A program made the position numbers and the translations under genes. The notes under the pieces are model-generated. The model made no database searches, had not been told where the DNA came from, and was given only the letters and a program-made list of their open reading frames with translations. Of a stretch of DNA of 64,000 nucleotides, positions 4,418 through 54,152 are shown piece by piece. This DNA is from Minisyncoccota bacterium (lineage in GTDB: Bacteria > Patescibacteriota > Minisyncoccia > UBA6257 > GWB1-50-10). The stretch covers positions 879 through 64,878 of the forward strand of contig JAGVBU010000003.1 of NCBI GenBank assembly GCA_020059585.1, in the 5' to 3' direction. Position 1 is the stretch's first letter. Every line of letters starts with the position of its first letter.

Positions 4418-5611
4418 ATGAAAAGAATGCTTAAAAAACACTTTGGATTTGATTCATTTCTCCCTTTTCAGGAGGATATTGTCGCCGACGTGTTGCAAAA
4501 AAAAGATGTGCTTGTGGTTCTCCCGACAGGCGCGGGAAAATCGCTTTGTTACCAGCTTCCCGCGCTTGAACTCCCTGGAACCGCGCTCGTCATTTCTCCG
4601 CTTATATCCCTCATGAAGGATCAGGTTTCTTCGCTTGAACGGAGAGACATCGCCGCGGCATATCTGAACAGCAGCCAAGGGGTCAAGGAAACGCGCGAAG
4701 TGAAGCAAAAGGTTCTTGATGGAAAGATAAGGCTTTTATATGTCGCTCCCGAGCGGATAATGAAGGATGGATTTCTCGATTTTTTGTCCGATGTGTCGGT
4801 TTCGTTTGTTGCGATTGATGAAGCGCATTGCATTTCGGAGTGGGGTCATGATTTCCGTCCCGAATACAGAAAACTCGGCACGCTTCGCGAAGCGTTTCCC
4901 CGCGTGCCGTTCATCGCGCTTACGGCGACCGCGACAAAAAAAGTACGTGACGATATAAAGAATCAACTTCGTTTTGTGGATTATGCGGAACACGCGGGAA
5001 GTTTTGACAGAAAAAATCTTACGTATCACATTAGGGCGAAACAGAATACGTATTATCATATAGTAAGCTATATCGAAGATCATCCGAATGTTTCGGGGAT
5101 TATTTATTGTCACAGTAGGAATTCTACTGAAAAAATGGCAAGCGATCTTTTGCGCGATGGCATTGACGCGGTTCCGTATCATGCGGGACTTCCTCAGAAG
5201 GAGCGTACTGAAAATCAGGAGAGATTTCAAAAAGGAGACGCAAAAATAATCGTGGCGACGATTGCGTTCGGAATGGGAATCGACAAACAGGATGTCCGGT
5301 TTGTTATCCATTATGATCTTCCAAAGAATATTGAGGGGTATTATCAGGAGACCGGCCGTGCGGGGAGAGACGGAAAACCCTCTGATTGCATTCTTTTCTT
5401 TAGTTATAGCGATAAGATGAAGCACGAATTCTTTATTAATCAGATGAAAAATCCGAATCGTGCCGCGGTGGCGCAGTATCAGCTCGAGAAGATGGTTGAT
5501 TTTTGCACGTCGTCAGAATGCAGGAGAAAAATGCTCCTTGGGTATTTTGGAGAGACATATAGAAACGAAAATTGCGGCGCGTGCGACATATGCACTGAAA
5601 CATATTATTGA
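4418..5611 (+). CDS. recQ: RecQ-family DNA helicase, short form (helicase core + zinc-binding, no HRDC)
   Basis: FGFDSFLPFQEDIV..VLPTGAGKSLCYQLPAL (motif I), DEAHCISEWGHDFRPEY (DEAH box). C-terminal Cys cluster CRRKMLLGYFGE...CGACDIC matches the RecQ zinc-binding module. Only 397 aa. Confidence 0.8.
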   Translation: MKRMLKKHFGFDSFLPFQEDIVADVLQKKDVLVVLPTGAGKSLCYQLPALELPGTALVISPLISLMKDQVSSLERRDIAAAYLNSSQGVKETREVKQKVLDGKIRLLYVAPERIMKDGFLDFLSDVSVSFVAIDEAHCISEWGHDFRPEYRKLGTLREAFPRVPFIALTATATKKVRDDIKNQLRFVDYAEHAGSFDRKNLTYHIRAKQNTYYHIVSYIEDHPNVSGIIYCHSRNSTEKMASDLLRDGIDAVPYHAGLPQKERTENQERFQKGDAKIIVATIAFGMGIDKQDVRFVIHYDLPKNIEGYYQETGRAGRDGKPSDCILFFSYSDKMKHEFFINQMKNPNRAAVAQYQLEKMVDFCTSSECRRKMLLGYFGETYRNENCGACDICTETYY

Positions 5612-5761
5612 GTGCGTGGGAGCATTTTTATGCATATTTGGTCTTTCCGATGGGTGTGATTCGTGGTATCATGGGCACATGAATAAGGCGAGAAAAATTG
5701 CAAAGAAAAAGCATAATAAAAAGAAAGGGAAAAAAGTATCGCTTAGAAACCGATAGAGGCA

Positions 5762-15853: not shown

Positions 15854-15882
15854 TTGAATAAATCGATTTTTTGTGGTATATT
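15854..15882 (+). promoter_or_regulatory. Sigma70-like promoter (TTGAAT-17-TATATT) for downstream methyltransferase gene
   Basis: Spacing and hexamers read directly. The promoter lies inside the 5' end of the longest ORF (15871), which argues for the downstream Met start. Confidence 0.3.
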
Positions 15883-15960
15883 CTGCCCGACAGGTTGCGA
15901 TATATTCGCGCGGCAATTCACGAATTTAAGGGCTGTTTCGAGAGATTTGCCCACCTCTAT

Positions 15961-16833
15961 ATGAATAATTTTTCAATACTCTCCACATTTCCGGAAAAGG
16001 ACTATGAGCTTCTGGATAGCGGGGAGCGCGACAAGCTTGAACGCTATGGGTCCGTGGTGCTTTCGCGCCCCGATCCGCAGGCATTATGGCCGAAACGGCT
16101 TCCTGAATCTGAATGGGAAAAGCGGGACGGCGCGTTTGTGCGCGCGAAAGTGGGCGCGCGGTGGGTATTCAAATCGGGAGTCCCTGAAAAATGGAGTATT
16201 GAGCTTGGCGGATTGCGTTTCTGGATTCGTCCGAGCGCGTTTAAACATACCGGTGTATTTCCGGAACAGGTACCCAATTGGGAATGGATAGAAAAGAAAA
16301 TTTCCGGGGCGGGGAGAACCGTGTCGGTGTTAAACCTTTTCGGATATACCGGTGGGGCGACGCTTGCGGCGGCAAAGGCGGGAGCGGAGGTATGTCATGT
16401 TGACGGTTCGCGTGTGGCGATTGGATGGGCGCGAGATAATGCCGCGCTTTCCGGACTTTCCGAAAAGCCCGTGAGATGGATATTGGACGATGCGCTTGCC
16501 TTTGTAAAAAAAGAAATAAAACGCGAAAAGAAATATGACGCGATCATTATGGATCCTCCCGCGTTTGGCCATGGACCGAAACAGGAGCTTTGGAAGATAG
16601 AGACCCATATGCTTGAATTACTTTCGGCGACCTATAATATACTTTCCGAGAACCCCCTTTTCTTTCTTGTGAACGGCTATGCGTCGGGATATTCGGCGCT
16701 TGCGTACAAGAACAATCTTGACGCGCTCACTGCCCGGTTCGGAGGGCGCGTTTCGATGGGTGAACTTTCCATCAAAGAAAGCGGAAGCGAACGCCTTCTG
16801 CCCGCAGGCATATTCGCGCGCTGGGAAAAATAA
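15961..16833 (+). CDS. SAM-dependent RNA methyltransferase, RlmI/YccW-like class I fold
   Basis: VLNLFGYTGGATLAAAKAGAEVCHVDGS (motif I), ILDDALAF, YDAIIMDPPAFG (the DPPxF motif typical of RlmI-like m5C/N-methyltransferases). Start moved to Met 15961 downstream of the predicted promoter. Confidence 0.6.
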   Translation: MNNFSILSTFPEKDYELLDSGERDKLERYGSVVLSRPDPQALWPKRLPESEWEKRDGAFVRAKVGARWVFKSGVPEKWSIELGGLRFWIRPSAFKHTGVFPEQVPNWEWIEKKISGAGRTVSVLNLFGYTGGATLAAAKAGAEVCHVDGSRVAIGWARDNAALSGLSEKPVRWILDDALAFVKKEIKREKKYDAIIMDPPAFGHGPKQELWKIETHMLELLSATYNILSENPLFFLVNGYASGYSALAYKNNLDALTARFGGRVSMGELSIKESGSERLLPAGIFARWEK

Positions 16834-16842
16834 AGATTATAT

Positions 16843-17499
16843 ATGCTCCGCATACTCTACGAAGACAACCATCTTATTGCCGTATTGAAGCCCGCGGGCG
16901 TTCTGACGCAAGGTGACCGGAGTGGAGAGGAAAGTCTCATGGAGATGGTGAAGAAATATCTGAAGGAAAAATATCAGAAGAAGGGGAATGTATTTTTGGG
17001 GCTCCTCCACCGCCTTGATCGTCCCGTGGAGGGAATTGTGCTTTTTGCAAAAACGAGCAAGGGAGCATCGCGGCTTTCCGAGCAGATACGCGAACGGCGT
17101 ATAAGGAAAATATATCATGCGATTGTATCGGGTATGCCTCGGGAGAAGAGGGGTATACTTGTGGACTTTCTCGAAAAGGATACGGCGCGGCTCAAGGCGC
17201 GCAGATCCGAGAAAGGCGTTCGCGCCGAGCTTGCGTATGAAACGATCCGTATGGGAAAAAAATATTCGCTTGTGAGAATAGACCTGAAAACGGGAAAATT
17301 CCATCAGATCCGCGCCCAGTTTTCGCTCATGGGGTGTCCTATCGCGGGGGATGTGAAATACGGCGCGCCGGAGGCGCTTCCGGGAGATGCGATTGCGCTT
17401 GCAGAAACCGAACTCTCCTTTGAAACCGCAACAACGGAGGAGATAAAAAGAATTTCAATTCCATTTCCGAATATCTGGGAAAATCTCTTAAAAGAGTAG
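16843..17499 (+). CDS. RluA-family pseudouridine synthase
   Basis: Catalytic HRLDRPVEGIVLFAKT motif (HRLD with catalytic Asp), then KIYHAIV.. Confidence 0.8.
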   Translation: MLRILYEDNHLIAVLKPAGVLTQGDRSGEESLMEMVKKYLKEKYQKKGNVFLGLLHRLDRPVEGIVLFAKTSKGASRLSEQIRERRIRKIYHAIVSGMPREKRGILVDFLEKDTARLKARRSEKGVRAELAYETIRMGKKYSLVRIDLKTGKFHQIRAQFSLMGCPIAGDVKYGAPEALPGDAIALAETELSFETATTEEIKRISIPFPNIWENLLKE

Positions 17500-17525: not shown

Positions 17526-17556
17526 TCATCCACCCATTAGCGCTAATGGGTGGATG
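17526..17556. repeat. 31-bp palindrome copy 1 (CATCCACCCATTAGC|GCTAATGGGTGGATGG)
   Basis: Seen in sequence; identical to 18072..18102. Confidence 0.6.
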
Positions 17557-17620
17557 GAGAGGGTTAGGATGTGTTGAAAATAAGGGAGTTGGGTGGTAGG
17601 ATATCTCTGTTTTCTATTTT

Positions 17621-17664
17621 TATTGCCGGATTGCCTGCCTGCACAGGCAGGTCTAATGGTAGGA
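17621..17664 (+). repeat. Duplicated 5' half of tRNA-Gln (tattgccggat...tctaatggtagga) interrupted by a 20-nt GC-rich palindrome (tgCCTGCCTGcaCAGGCAGG)
   Basis: Direct comparison with the intact tRNA at 17705: 11 nt + 13 nt identical, with 'cg' replaced by the 20-nt hairpin. Confidence 0.5.
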
Positions 17665-17704
17665 TAGTAATACGGGAAATAAAAGAAAATCAGAAATAAA
17701 ATAT

Positions 17705-17775
17705 TGCCGGATCGTCTAATGGTAGGACGCCTGACTCTGGATCAGGTAATTGGGGTTCGAATCCCTGTCCGGCAG
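17705..17775 (+). tRNA. tRNA-Gln (anticodon CUG)
   Basis: Hand fold: acceptor TGCCGGA/TCCGGCA with U1:A72 and G73 discriminator (the bacterial Gln identity set). D-arm GTCT-AATGGTA-GGAC, anticodon arm CCTGA-CTCTGGA-TCAGG, T-arm TGGGG-TTCGAAT-CCCTG. No encoded CCA. Confidence 0.8.
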
Positions 17776-17785
17776 CTAATGAAAA

Positions 17786-17816
17786 ATTGAGGCACCTCGC
17801 GTGTCTCAATTTTTTA
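17786..17816 (+). terminator. Rho-independent terminator after tRNA-Gln
   Basis: ATTGAGGCAC-ctcgc-GTGTCTCAAT followed by TTTTTTATT. Confidence 0.55.
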
Positions 17817-17944
17817 TTCTTCTGTTGATGACAGGGATTCGAACGGAACTTTTGCGCATGCGTTGCATGATGAAGCAAAAGTCCGTGGCTTCGGGGGAAC
17901 AATTTCATTTGAGCAAAGTGAATATGTAAATTGTGGGGGAGAAG

Positions 17945-17982
17945 GAATCCCTGCCTGACGGCAGGCAGGCCTGTCCGGCAGC
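17945..17982 (+). repeat. Duplicated 3' end of tRNA-Gln (gaatccctg...tccggcagc) interrupted by the same-family 20-nt palindrome (CCTGacggCAGGcagg cctg)
   Basis: 9 nt + 9 nt identical to the tRNA 3' end, with a 20-nt hairpin insert. Related minus-strand T-loop fragments (gttcgaatccc) lie at ~17826..17845 and ~18041..18060. Confidence 0.5.
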
Positions 17983-18071
17983 AGTTAGATCTTGCCATGG
18001 TGGAACGTTCGCAAAATCAACTGTCCCGATATTAATCGGGGCTTTTTGTTTTCGGGGATTCGAACTCCGAC

Positions 18072-18102
18072 CATCCACCCATTAGCGCTAATGGGTGGAT
18101 GG
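18072..18102. repeat. 31-bp palindrome copy 2 (identical to 17526..17556)
   Basis: Seen in sequence; perfect 16-bp arms (18071..18102). Confidence 0.6.
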
Positions 18103-18203
18103 AGGATTTTAGCGAATTGTCAGGATTCTCAAAAGAATAGAATGTAGTTTTGTGGAAGGAGGTACTAAAAAGATTCTGTTTTAATTTTTGATATAATCAC
18201 AAT

Positions 18204-18509
18204 ATGAATAAAAAGATTACGATACTTGCTGTTATTTTTATTGTCGTGATTGCGGCAGTTTATTTTTTTAGAGAAGACGCGGGGGATGGGGTGCTGGAAG
18301 TGGGAGTGCCTACCGCGTGGGAGCGCGCGAAAGAGGCTGTTCTGAACTGCGAGGCAGAGGGCATTTTTCAGACACACGCAAGAGAAGTGAGTGTGAAACT
18401 GAAGAATGGCGGAACGATCACCGCCATAGAGCCGAAAATCGATGATATATTCGATGTTGTGAAAGAAGCCGTGCCGCAATGCGGAACGATTCGTATGGCA
18501 ACGGAATGA
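18204..18509 (+). CDS. Small secreted/membrane-anchored hypothetical protein
   Basis: N-terminal hydrophobic helix MNKKITILAVIFIVVIAAVYFF; 101 aa; terminator follows. Confidence 0.45.
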   Translation: MNKKITILAVIFIVVIAAVYFFREDAGDGVLEVGVPTAWERAKEAVLNCEAEGIFQTHAREVSVKLKNGGTITAIEPKIDDIFDVVKEAVPQCGTIRMATE

Positions 18510-47977: not shown

Positions 47978-48388
47978 CTACTTTGCGTCAAGGAAGTCAT
48001 ATTTCAGCAACTTTCGGGCAATAGGTTTTCCGTCGTCGTACGTTGTTTCAAATTCTTCTTTATATGACACGGTCACCTCCTGTCCCTGTTTCAGCCGGTT
48101 CCATAATTCTTTTGCCTGTTTCTGATCATTCTGGATTATAAATTTTCCGTGCTGACATTGGAACACGACCGCGTAACGCTCCTCAACATCGACGGAAGTG
48201 AAACTGACCCCGAGATCAAGATTCATATCGATGGTGGGGGATATGCCGCTGCCGTGAGTCGATGGAGTGTATACCAGATCAACCACGGTTGCTTTTTCAT
48301 AGAGAACTTCGGAACTTTCTCTTTTTGTTTCAATGCATCCGGTGAAAAGCATACTGAAAACGAATACGATAAAAAATATTTTTTTCAT
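47978..48388 (-). CDS. Small lipoprotein (hypothetical)
   Basis: Signal peptide with lipobox MKKIFFIVFVFSMLFTGC. Confidence 0.5.
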   Translation of the reverse strand: MKKIFFIVFVFSMLFTGCIETKRESSEVLYEKATVVDLVYTPSTHGSGISPTIDMNLDLGVSFTSVDVEERYAVVFQCQHGKFIIQNDQKQAKELWNRLKQGQEVTVSYKEEFETTYDDGKPIARKLLKYDFLDAK

Positions 48389-48524
48389 CGAGGACCTCCT
48401 TTTGATTCGTAAATTATTTTATTAAGTATTTTTAATATCTTTTATAATTATAACAAATTATCGTATGTTTGTCAATTAATGTTTGTAAAATAAAAATTGG
48501 TGTTGTACGTTCTACTATATAGGT

Positions 48525-49823
48525 ATGTTTTCGATACTCAAAAAAGATAACAATTCTCGTGCGCGGAGCGGGACGCTCACAACATTTAGCGGGAGAACCG
48601 TGGAAACACCCGCGTATGCGATCGTGGGAACGCACGCGGAGGTGCGCTGTTTGCCTGCGGAAAAAATGAAGGACGCGAGGGTGCAGCTCATTATCGCGAA
48701 CACATATCATTTGTGGCAACGGTTAGGCAAAGATATTGAGAAGTTTCAGGGACTTCATGCGGAGATGAATACTCCTGATATGGTGATTATGACTGACAGT
48801 GGGGGCTTTCAGGTTTTTAGTTTGGGGTTCGGAAGGGAACACGGAGTAGGGAAAGTGGGGGGTATCAGGAATTCATCTGTCGGGACCGAGCGTTCTCCGT
48901 CTCCTGCGGACAGAGCCGCTCTACGCTCTCATCCTGGCGAATCCGACGTTCGTCGAATACCAAGCTCGCCAGGATTCCGAGAGTTCCCTCCAGACGATTT
49001 CCTGATACATAATGAAAGGAATATGCGAGATAAGAACCTCGTGAGGATTACGGAAGAGGGGGCATATTTTATGACTGACGACGGGGAGCGTTTCCTCGGA
49101 CCGAAGCTTTCGATGGAGATTCAGGAGAAGCTCGGGGCGGATATTATTCTTGCGTTTGATGAATGCACATCACCGGAACATGAATATGAATATCAAAAGC
49201 AGGCGCTCGCGCGCACACATCGATGGGCGGAAGAATGTATTGCGGTAAAAACACGGAATGATCAGATGCTATATGGCATTGTACAGGGTGGGGTGTTCGA
49301 GGATTTGCGGAAAGAGAGTTCGCGATATATTGGAAATCTTCCATTTGACGGATTTGCGATTGGCGGATCGTTTGGTGAGGGGAAAATGCGGGAGGTGATT
49401 GGGTGGAGTGTTTCCGGACTTCCCGAAGAAAAACCAAGGCATCTTCTGGGGATCGGAAAGATAGAAAATATACTTGATGGTGTTGCCGAGGGAATTGATA
49501 CGTTTGATTGCGTGATTCCGACGCGCGAGGCGCGCCACGGCGGAGTGTGGACGCGTGAAGGAAGATTCGACGCAAAGAAGAGCGCAAACAAAAATTCCGA
49601 TGCTCCGATTGAAAAAGGATGTGTGTGTCCAACGTGCGCGATGGGAGTGACGCGCGGAATGCTCTTTGATATGTTTCACTCGAAAGATTTGAGAGCGGGA
49701 GAATACGCGACGATGCACAATATTTTCTTTTTCAATACGTTTATGTCCGAAATGCGGCGGGCGATTCAGAATGGAATGTTCCGAGAATTTGAAAAAGAAA
49801 CAAGGGGGAAACTTAAAAAATAA
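48525..49823 (+). CDS. tgt: Queuine tRNA-ribosyltransferase (tRNA-guanine transglycosylase) with ~65-aa low-complexity in-frame insertion
   Basis: RSGTLTTFSGR..ETPAY, GGFQVFSL, LAFDECTSP, zinc site CVCPTC..H. Extra S/P/R-rich segment between the FQVFSL and VRITEEG regions. Confidence 0.8.
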   Translation: MFSILKKDNNSRARSGTLTTFSGRTVETPAYAIVGTHAEVRCLPAEKMKDARVQLIIANTYHLWQRLGKDIEKFQGLHAEMNTPDMVIMTDSGGFQVFSLGFGREHGVGKVGGIRNSSVGTERSPSPADRAALRSHPGESDVRRIPSSPGFREFPPDDFLIHNERNMRDKNLVRITEEGAYFMTDDGERFLGPKLSMEIQEKLGADIILAFDECTSPEHEYEYQKQALARTHRWAEECIAVKTRNDQMLYGIVQGGVFEDLRKESSRYIGNLPFDGFAIGGSFGEGKMREVIGWSVSGLPEEKPRHLLGIGKIENILDGVAEGIDTFDCVIPTREARHGGVWTREGRFDAKKSANKNSDAPIEKGCVCPTCAMGVTRGMLFDMFHSKDLRAGEYATMHNIFFFNTFMSEMRRAIQNGMFREFEKETRGKLKK

Positions 49824-50146: not shown

Positions 50147-50212
50147 TCAAAAAACAAAATCAGTTTTTTGAGGTAGAAATTTATATCCGCTTGTTTTTAC
50201 GGATTATACACG

Positions 50213-53775
<3,563 letters not shown>

Positions 53776-53829
53776 ATAGGCGGTTGAATTTCTATCTCAA
53801 AAAGCTGATTTTCATCAGCTCGCACCAGA

Positions 53830-53945
53830 ATTTTTATATGCCGGTGTTTTATTTGAACGTGACCCACCTCTTTCCATTCCGAACAGAGAAGTGAAAGCGT
53901 TCAAACCCGATGATACTTGGCCTTTCGGGGCTCGGGAAAGTAGGG
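53830..53945 (+). rRNA. rrf: 5S ribosomal RNA
   Basis: ..CCATTCCGAACAGAGAAGTGAAAGCG..CTTGGCC..GGGAAAGTAGGGTATGCCGG with palindromic terminal helix GCCGGT/GCCGGT; ~116 nt, directly after the 23S. Confidence 0.7.
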
Positions 53946-54152
53946 TATGCCGGTATTTAAAAGTCCTGGTGTTTTTTTGCGCCCTTTTTAGTCATTTTTA
54001 CATACGAATGAGAGATCTCTGTGTTTTGTCAATCTTTACAATATTCTTTTAAACTTTTTTAAAGTTATCCACAAAAATGGTTGGAAATTTTTTTATTTTT
54101 TTTGTGATAGAATGAAAACGTTCGAACAAACTTTTTACTTTTTTATATTTAT

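Follow-up and report, generated by a model that had tools for sequence, protein, structure and literature searches.

A tRNA-Gln locus of a Patescibacteria-type bacterium, read as a recombination hot spot overlain by palindromes of an ArsR-associated family

Why should an intact tRNA gene lie among broken copies of its own two ends, each copy interrupted by nearly the same small hairpin, with a long perfect palindrome on either side? The question is raised by the non-coding block around tRNA-Gln(CUG) in a stretch of 64,000 nucleotides (the window; positions 879 to 64,878 of contig JAGVBU010000003.1) whose host, by its sequence, is an uncultured bacterium of the Patescibacteria/Parcubacteria type within the candidate phyla radiation (CPR). 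An original prediction had listed these features and offered several explanations, namely scars of integration or excision at a tRNA attachment site, a miniature inverted-repeat transposable element (MITE), a split or permuted tRNA, and palindromes acting as protein-binding sites or element termini. All the listed features are present, far beyond chance, with coordinates off by at most 1-3 nt. The best reading of the tRNA-Gln locus is that of a recombination hot spot and not of a split tRNA. The full composite reading, in which scars at this hot spot are combined with palindromes of ArsR type, has in our estimate an even chance of being correct. The tRNA and its pieces are as follows.

17705-17775, plus strand: intact tRNA-Gln(CUG), found by ARAGORN; full-length match to the Rfam tRNA model with 60.1 bits
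17624-17664, plus strand: dead 5' part-copy, tRNA nt 1-23, split after nt 10 by an 18-nt palindrome
17634-17651, no strand assigned: that palindrome, hairpin hp1, CCTGCCTG-CA-CAGGCAGG
17665-17704, plus strand: A-rich spacer of 40 nt between the part-copy and the real tRNA, without other copy
17830-17844, minus strand: inverted copy of tRNA nt 51-65, GTTCGAATCCCTGTC, 15/15 match
17945-17982, plus strand: dead 3' part-copy, tRNA nt 55-72, split after nt 59 by the 20-nt hairpin hp2
17950-17969: hairpin hp2, CCTGCCTG-ACGG-CAGGCAGG
18055-18068, minus strand: second inverted T-loop-like piece, GGAGTTCGAATCCC, tRNA nt 48-61, 13/14 match
17778-18178, no strand assigned: composite insertion, specific to the lineage, that separates the tRNA from the next gene by 401 bp vs 13 bp in the outgroup

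The 5' part-copy begins with tRNA nt 1-10 at 17624-17633, with one mismatch (local alignment covers nt 1-8 at 17624-17631 and was extended by eye), and continues behind the hairpin with nt 10-23 at 17651-17664 (14/14 by local alignment). The 3' part-copy consists of GAATC at 17945-17949, equal to nt 55-59, and of CCTGTCCGGCAGC at 17970-17982, equal to nt 60-72 (13/13). In both, the palindrome is a clean insertion whose flanks are colinear with the tRNA (...GGATCG^TCTAAT... and ...GAATC^CCTGTCC...), and both hairpin copies are preceded by G(G/A)ATC(G). These two palindrome-interrupted direct repeats lie 63-81 bp upstream and 186-206 bp downstream, respectively, and cover nt 1-23 and 55-72 only, nt 24-54 being missing. 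As a control for chance, the best local score against the tRNA was determined in random 630-bp chunks of the window; the tRNA pieces score 23-30, and the random chunks never exceed 22. The hairpin pattern CCTGCCTG-n-CAGGCAGG has only two copies in 64 kb where none is expected, and a scan of all perfect hairpins of the window returned otherwise almost only terminators. The succession of tRNA 3' end, terminator and inverted T-loop piece occurs twice in the block, at 17755-17844 and at 17945-18068.

Five assemblies of close relatives were recovered and their divergence was measured over 1.2 kb upstream of the block, where they differ from the window as follows.

L001: 0.33%
L176: 2.0%
L003: 2.4%
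L002: 2.8%
L177: 3.6%

Among these strains the tRNA pieces are polymorphic. A leader insertion of 81 bp, made up of the 5' part-copy with its hairpin (17624-17664) and the spacer (17665-17704), is present in the window, L001, L176 and L177 and absent both from L003, which has a gap against the window, and from the outgroup L175/L010; the counterpart of hp1 in L001, L176 and L177 is the perfect palindrome CCTGCCTGCGCAGGCAGG. A 76-bp tRNA segment is identical (100%) between L175 (7114-7189) and the window (17702-17777). In L175 the promoter of the next gene follows 13 bp past tRNA-Gln, and homology resumes at L175 7203, which corresponds to window position 18179. The composite insertion that fills this place in the window is built of the two units of tRNA 3' end, terminator and inverted T-loop piece together with the right-hand palindrome.

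The DNA behind the tRNA also differs between near-identical strains. The window and L001 carry wholly unrelated terminators right after the tRNA, the exchanged stretch reaching from the tRNA 3' end to the inverted T-arm piece; further on, 17913-18053 differs by about 8% despite the difference of 0.33% upstream, and the 3' part-copy is kept in L001 with single-nucleotide polymorphisms. In L001 the second T-loop piece is additionally interrupted after GGGGATTC by 1.2 kb holding two genes, one for a DUF6064 protein and one for a protein of 129 aa. The terminator of L177 is unrelated to the other two, and behind it stands one more inverted T-loop piece. The idea that the window terminator is the L001 terminator in inverted orientation, between the tRNA and the inverted T-arm copy, was dropped after blastn on both strands gave no match in L001. 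Rather than a conserved single-copy arrangement, the comparison reveals a polymorphic locus. The proposal of scars at a tRNA hot spot is supported by the lack of the 5' part-copy in L003 and the outgroup, by the lack of the downstream block of ~390 bp in the outgroup, and by the change of the sequence abutting the tRNA 3' end between near-identical strains. We regard this as the signature of a hot spot because four features combine: replacement of DNA at the 3' end, direct repeats of part of the tRNA, cargo genes in L001 and an empty site in the outgroup.

Not every apparent allele can be used in this comparison. L176 (GCA_020724625.1, DYGO01000022.1) is window-like in its left part (98%), its right part is 99.94% identical to the L175 lineage, and the joint at 5589-5664 falls inside the 76-bp tRNA-Gln common to both lineages. 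It is most likely a chimeric assembly and, with its right half belonging to the outgroup lineage, was rejected as an "empty site". tRNA genes that are identical between co-occurring lineages create such chimeric joins in metagenome assemblies. Two further relatives, P0006 and L007, were discarded since they are not syntenic downstream of the pseudouridine synthase gene RluA that precedes the block.

The hairpin-bearing tRNA pieces might also be functional RNAs, acting as a split or permuted tRNA, as a processing or regulatory leader, or as a decoy. This possibility has to be judged against the transcription signals of the locus.

17574-17602, plus strand: sigma-70-type tRNA promoter TTGAAA-17 nt-TG-g-TAGGAT
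17778-17818, plus strand: terminator 1 (A-run, 18-bp stem, T-run)
18023-18052, plus strand: terminator 2, GTCCCGAT-atta-ATCGGGGC, then TTTTTGTTTT

The identical promoter with identical spacing precedes tRNA-Gln in the outgroup L175 (7077-7105) and in L003. Its extended -10 box is the TGGTAGGAT at 17594-17602, and the "D-loop-like fragment" formerly placed at ~17590 is really this box. Terminator 1 is rated strong and is confined to the window strain, with unrelated terminators in L001/L003 and in L177. The intact tRNA-Gln(CUG), with the ends U1...A72 and G73, is the sole functional gene within the block; the open reading frames (ORFs) of at least 40 aa that touch the block are all short (42-102 aa) and overlap each other, one of them running antisense to the tRNA. 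Folding of the predicted primary transcript gives a cloverleaf for the tRNA and, in the leader, a separate, independent hairpin for the 5' piece. This piece persists in strains up to 3.6% apart; its place in the leader, its fold and its persistence would be in keeping with a functional RNA. Yet the intact gene is present beside it, one clade and the outgroup lack the 5' piece, and the 3' piece sits behind a strong terminator. The pieces have changed as much as neutral drift predicts, and one change in L001 weakens the hp2 stem. The hairpin inserts have perfect self-paired 8-bp stems with 2-4-nt loops that do not pair with the flanks, and they are devoid of a bulge-helix-bulge splice motif. A search of the block against Rfam matched nothing besides the tRNA itself, and a minus-strand pseudo-tRNA at 17830-17945 was rejected after inspection and an Rfam search that admitted E values up to 10. 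The locus shares with split, permuted and multi-intron tRNAs of archaea the non-canonical interruption by short GC-rich self-complementary inserts; it differs in belonging to a bacterium, in its intact gene, in the missing bulge-helix-bulge and in pieces that are incomplete (nt 24-54 missing) and dispensable in relatives. A function of the pieces as RNA thus appears extremely improbable, and the notion of a split or permuted tRNA finds no support beside a high-scoring tRNA with its own promoter.

A different explanation dispenses with mobile elements altogether and has the pieces and the small palindromes arise where the tRNA stems are self-complementary, through replication slippage, a switch of template or fold-back synthesis, and then drift. 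Several details speak for such a local origin. The 5' part-copy ends in TGGTAGGATA, which is identical to the -10 region 63 nt upstream and suggests misalignment between TGGTAGGA repeats; the hp2 region may be taken for a pair of degenerate tRNA 3' ends that overlap; CCTG/CAGG, the arms of the hairpin, are also the arms of the anticodon stem in tRNA-Gln; and Pfam scans found no recombinase gene nearby. However, the three mutually unrelated terminators and the two-gene segment of 1.2 kb are not makeable from local sequence, the window contains the filler DNA only once, and the divergence of about 8% in the downstream block against 0.33% upstream points to import of a foreign allele. We consider a purely local origin unlikely, although it deserves to be kept in mind. 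The source of the 18/20-nt palindrome CCTGCCTG..CAGGCAGG, which is seen in the two dead copies only, has to be left unexplained, and so have the repeated inverted T-loop pieces.

Small GC-rich palindromic insertions are known from the GC clusters of yeast mitochondria and from the Rickettsia palindromic elements. The present hairpin resembles these as a short GC-rich palindrome cleanly inserted in colinear sequence, RNA-gene sequence included; it differs from them in its length of only 18-20 nt and in its two copies, both in dead tRNA copies within 320 bp. A MITE-like element, as had been considered, does not agree with the data. Neither the 64 kb nor any of the relatives retrieved contains further copies of the hairpin, the long palindrome or the filler DNA, the ends of the 401-bp and the 81-bp insertions are not inverted repeats of each other, and the inverted extension of the inner palindrome flanks matches at only 9/15 positions.

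A more fitting comparison is with integrating elements. Partial tRNA genes are known by-products of the integration of genetic elements (PMC9897764), and prophages flanked by attachment sites exist in Patescibacteria (PMC13059738). Like the tRNA fragments of attachment sites (PMC9897764), the locus has direct part-copies beside an intact gene, shows insertions that some strains have and others lack, is joined at the tRNA 3' end to DNA that is unrelated among close relatives, and carries cargo genes in one strain (L001). Unlike them, it has neither integrase nor element; its pieces are tens to hundreds of bp apart, some are inverted, two are split by a small palindrome, and one lies on the 5' side, within the tRNA leader. 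The tRNA part of the locus is, all told, a further example of an already known kind.

Database searches yielded one instructive case. A scan of species-representative genomes for the tRNA-Gln pattern returned mostly Actinobacteria and one useful CPR-like contig, L015 (metagenome-assembled genome HSP1.bin6, JAJZBA010000056.1), in which a large serine recombinase gene directly abuts tRNA-Gln(CTG). Its ORF of 509 aa (1382-2923), with Resolvase, Recombinase and Zn-ribbon domains, runs antisense into the tRNA gene. A tblastn search of the block with this recombinase found no remnant, only an antisense match to the tRNA. CCA is encoded in the tRNA-Gln(CTG) gene of L015, and the trailer of this gene, GTTAGGA, is similar to the AGTTAGA that trails the dead 3' copy of the window. 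In IMG/VR, the tRNA 3' end, the junction between hairpin and tRNA 3' piece, and the long palindrome were all without match; the tRNA 5' 23-mer matched a phage tRNA array only, and short junction and core patterns gave numerous matches, which we took as chance since none contained the full hairpin or an ArsR-like gene. A metagenome scan led to three contigs, of which L006 was relevant and L004 and L005 were phage-like and unrelated.

What, then, are the two long palindromes?

17527-17556, no strand assigned: left palindrome, pal1, with the halves CATCCACCCATTAGC and GCTAATGGGTGGATG, perfect over 30 bp
18071-18102, no strand assigned: right palindrome, pal2, with the halves CCATCCACCCATTAGC and GCTAATGGGTGGATGG, perfect over 32 bp

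Their regions form a direct repeat with 33 identical nt (17527-17559 = 18072-18104), and even with up to 3 mismatches allowed there are only these two copies in 64 kb, against an expectation of none. Both are members of a family with the core ATTnGCGCnAAT that is associated with ArsR-type genes. In the outgroup L175 the order is RluA, palindrome (palA), a 96-aa gene, palindrome (palB), tRNA promoter and tRNA-Gln, and L008, L009 and L010 show the same left part. The RluA protein of L175 is ~70% identical to that of the window, an RluA-type pseudouridine synthase by Pfam scan, encoded upstream of the block at 16843-17499; the nearest homologues of the latter are found in Parcubacteria/Patescibacteria metagenome-assembled genomes. 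The bracketed gene encodes 87-96 aa and belongs to the ArsR family, with PF01022 (HTH_5) above the Pfam cut-off. Bracketing of such a gene by palindromes of the family is evident from the sequences of six related lineages (L006, L008, L009/L010/L175, L025, L026 and L178-L180), at other loci in L006, L025, L026 and L178-L180, and in L178 both arsR-bracketing palindromes are identical over 34 bp. The core occurs twice in the 12.7 kb of L175, where 0.07 copies are expected.

The position of the upstream palindrome is telling. Read directly in six lineages, it ends 0-12 nt before the extended -10 box (TGnTAnnAT) of arsR, and an inverted repeat overlapping the arsR promoter is found in L006, L008, L175, L025, L026 and L178. 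A palindrome just before the -10 box of a regulator gene is in the usual position of an autoregulatory operator, and the autoregulated operators of ArsR/SmtB proteins are inverted repeats that overlap the regulator's own promoter. The palindromes share with these operators a place immediately before the -10 box of a small HTH_5 gene and conserved core bases. Unlike them, they reach the unusual length of 30-34 bp with perfect symmetry, there is always a second copy behind the gene, their arms vary yet remain self-complementary, and the pair in the window flanks a tRNA with no regulator gene. The palindromes are most likely binding sites of an ArsR-like protein, and the suggestion that they are protein-binding sites gains from their constant association with an ArsR-family gene in relatives. 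The arrangement also recalls repetitive extragenic palindromic (REP) sequences. These flank the genes of RAYT transposases, so that a gene is bracketed by its cognate palindromes; here too a small gene is flanked on both sides by a palindrome presumably recognised by its product. In contrast to RAYT, the flanked gene is a winged-helix HTH_5 regulator of 87-96 aa and not an HUH/Y1 transposase, and the palindromes are not dispersed in many copies.

In an alignment of 14 distinct palindromes the positions A5, C11, ATT13-15, G17, G19, C20, AAT22-24 and T32 are invariant. The cells of the arms pair in 95.4% of cases, with changes on both sides in 9/14 pairs; none of 500 shuffles (0/500) reaches this pairing and no slid register comes close. 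Two palindromes of one genome can differ in their arms, as in L025, L175 and L026. It seems that self-complementarity itself is upheld while the arms vary between copies, for which simple sequence recognition offers us no explanation. The palindrome-ArsR module is plausibly a new pair of regulator and binding site with one odd property, its co-varying arms, and thereby a candidate pair in Patescibacteria, where regulation is almost unstudied.

In the window, tblastn found no ArsR homologue, and a search of 185,579 species-representative genomes gave no match to the palindrome. L006 carries arsR, and its palB equals the palindrome of L003 letter for letter over 28 nt; therefore an ArsR-like regulator is probably encoded elsewhere in the window species, at a locus of the L006 type. 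Between pal1 and the -35 box of the tRNA promoter there are 17 nt. On its left pal1 is flanked by the RluA 3' end, like palA of L175, and its right flank, carrying the tRNA promoter, is homologous to the flank of palB of L175. Because its flanks match those of palA on the left and palB on the right, pal1 is best read as the fusion or remnant of two arsR-flanking palindromes after loss of arsR. Pal2 lies inside later-inserted DNA, and we have no explanation for its source. The idea that the two palindromes are the termini of one 577-bp element is accordingly not supported, pal1 being at the position that the arsR module has in L175.

Could the 30-bp palindromes instead delimit exchangeable cassettes of palindrome, cargo and palindrome, with arsR as the usual cargo and tRNA-Gln (in L001 together with two genes) as a captured one? 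A pair of identical palindromes encloses arsR in L178, another encloses the tRNA block of the window, and the cargo so enclosed differs between the window and L001. The arsR module occurs in at least four gene contexts (L175, L025, L026 and L178), and L006 and L025 are homologous from palindrome to palindrome only, their homology stopping there. The window site syntenic with the L026 module (48388-48525) is cleanly empty, with neither gene nor palindrome, and the palindrome arms conserve self-complementarity rather than sequence. On the other hand, no module has an associated recombinase, and two palindromes in 64 kb of the window and two in 12.7 kb of L175 give no sign of proliferation. The upstream palindrome has a fixed, operator-like position relative to the arsR -10 box, and synteny with the outgroup extends over the tRNA, its promoter and the genes on both sides, which means that the tRNA has not moved in. 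We find this cassette explanation doubtful. Its more specific form, in which the long palindromes would be hairpin or cruciform recombination sites of exchangeable Patescibacteria cassettes, perhaps with an ArsR-like factor, and the CCTGCCTG..CAGGCAGG hairpins the footprints of joining, appears very unlikely. If it were true, the tRNA-Gln locus would be a cassette site and the small hairpins would come from an undescribed hairpin-forming joining reaction.

The ends of the contigs of L001 and L002 and the start of L026 (all Logan contigs) fall exactly inside the 30-bp palindromes, which is consistent with perfect palindromes of length k-1 breaking k=31 de Bruijn graphs. A perfect 30-bp palindrome breaks such graphs by itself, and the L001 and L002 ends are therefore no evidence of multiple copies. 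Perfect palindromes of length k-1 or more create contig breaks in this way, and loci that contain them are systematically fragmented.

Returning to the hot-spot reading with ArsR-type palindromes, we envisage two unrelated layers that overlie each other, the palindromes as the first and the tRNA pieces as the second. In the first layer, arsR would have been lost at the window position by recombination between its two flanking palindromes, leaving one behind. In the second, the intergenic region around tRNA-Gln would have been repeatedly broken and rejoined, and the tRNA pieces would be dead by-products of insertions and replacements that used the tRNA-Gln sequence as joint. tRNA sequence also serves as a joint at the attachment sites of integrating elements. 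One event may have brought 81 bp into the leader, duplicating tRNA nt 1-23, and several events may be stacked in the ~390 bp after the 3' end, each contributing another tRNA 3'-end copy together with a separate terminator and an inverted T-loop piece; the inserting elements themselves would since have been lost. The tRNA is probably transcribed from TTGAAA-17-TGgTAGGAT, RNase P would cut off the leader with the dead 5' copy and its hairpin, and terminator 1 would end the transcript, the rest of the block being presumably non-functional DNA. We speculate that the two palindrome sites, 545 bp apart, might be bridged by an ArsR-like protein and that transcription of tRNA-Gln might be affected.

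Several points weigh against this composite picture. Neither inverted T-loop pieces nor palindrome-split part-copies are produced by conservative site-specific recombination alone. Local duplication could have given rise to the 81-bp leader insertion, because the end of that insertion, TGGTAGGATA, equals the -10 region of the promoter. The L177 allele may be chimeric too, joined in the 76-bp tRNA shared between lineages. No integrase, transposase or phage gene was found by Pfam scans among 46 predicted proteins of the window, which include all 43 non-overlapping predicted genes of at least 150 aa and represent housekeeping and hypothetical genes; the filler DNA matched nothing in phage and plasmid collections, only other tRNA-Gln genes being found, and neither these collections nor IMG/VR revealed a donor element. 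As to the palindromes, binding by an ArsR-like protein is deduced from sequence, the case for an arsR gene in the window's own genome comes from L006 alone, and arms that differ yet stay self-complementary fit a requirement for a hairpin or cruciform better than simple sequence recognition. If the composite reading is correct, known processes account for the conspicuous mix of tRNA halves, hairpins and palindromes in this CPR genome, which helps the annotation of such little-known genomes and avoids false calls of split tRNAs.

Some further observations concern the surroundings of the arsR modules and of the tRNA-Gln locus. In L025 (1-86) the module lies ~140 bp from a tRNA-Ser(GGA) gene, a second case of a module beside a tRNA gene. 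The flanks of the ArsR gene in L026 (1940-2740) are crowded with other short perfect GC-rich palindromes, e.g. GCAACGATGTCGGACGTCGTTGC and CAATATTGGGATGTACAACATCCCAATATTG, and short palindromes may be a general feature of intergenic DNA in this group. Downstream of the block, the 101-aa ORF at 18204-18509 (MNKKIT...) is what an internal in-frame deletion leaves of a gene that encodes 224 aa in L175. The 1.8 kb that follow it (to 20313) hold an Acyl_transf_3 gene and a 172-aa ORF, both absent from L175, where a DEAD-box helicase gene directly follows the 224-aa gene. Two ORFs of the window downstream of the block had no record in an exact-protein look-up. Upstream, a 184-aa gene without assigned function stands between a 215-aa gene and a methyltransferase gene in L001 (8553-9119) and is also present in L002 and L007; in the window it is missing, ~90 bp being left at 15871-15961. 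Farther away, the 23S rRNA gene at 50202-53955 spans 3570 nt against a 2925-nt model and thus contains ~650 nt of insertions. It is followed by 5S rRNA, with no 16S gene directly upstream and a TGT gene at 48525-49823, and the small minus-strand ORFs at 50585-53867 fall within it.

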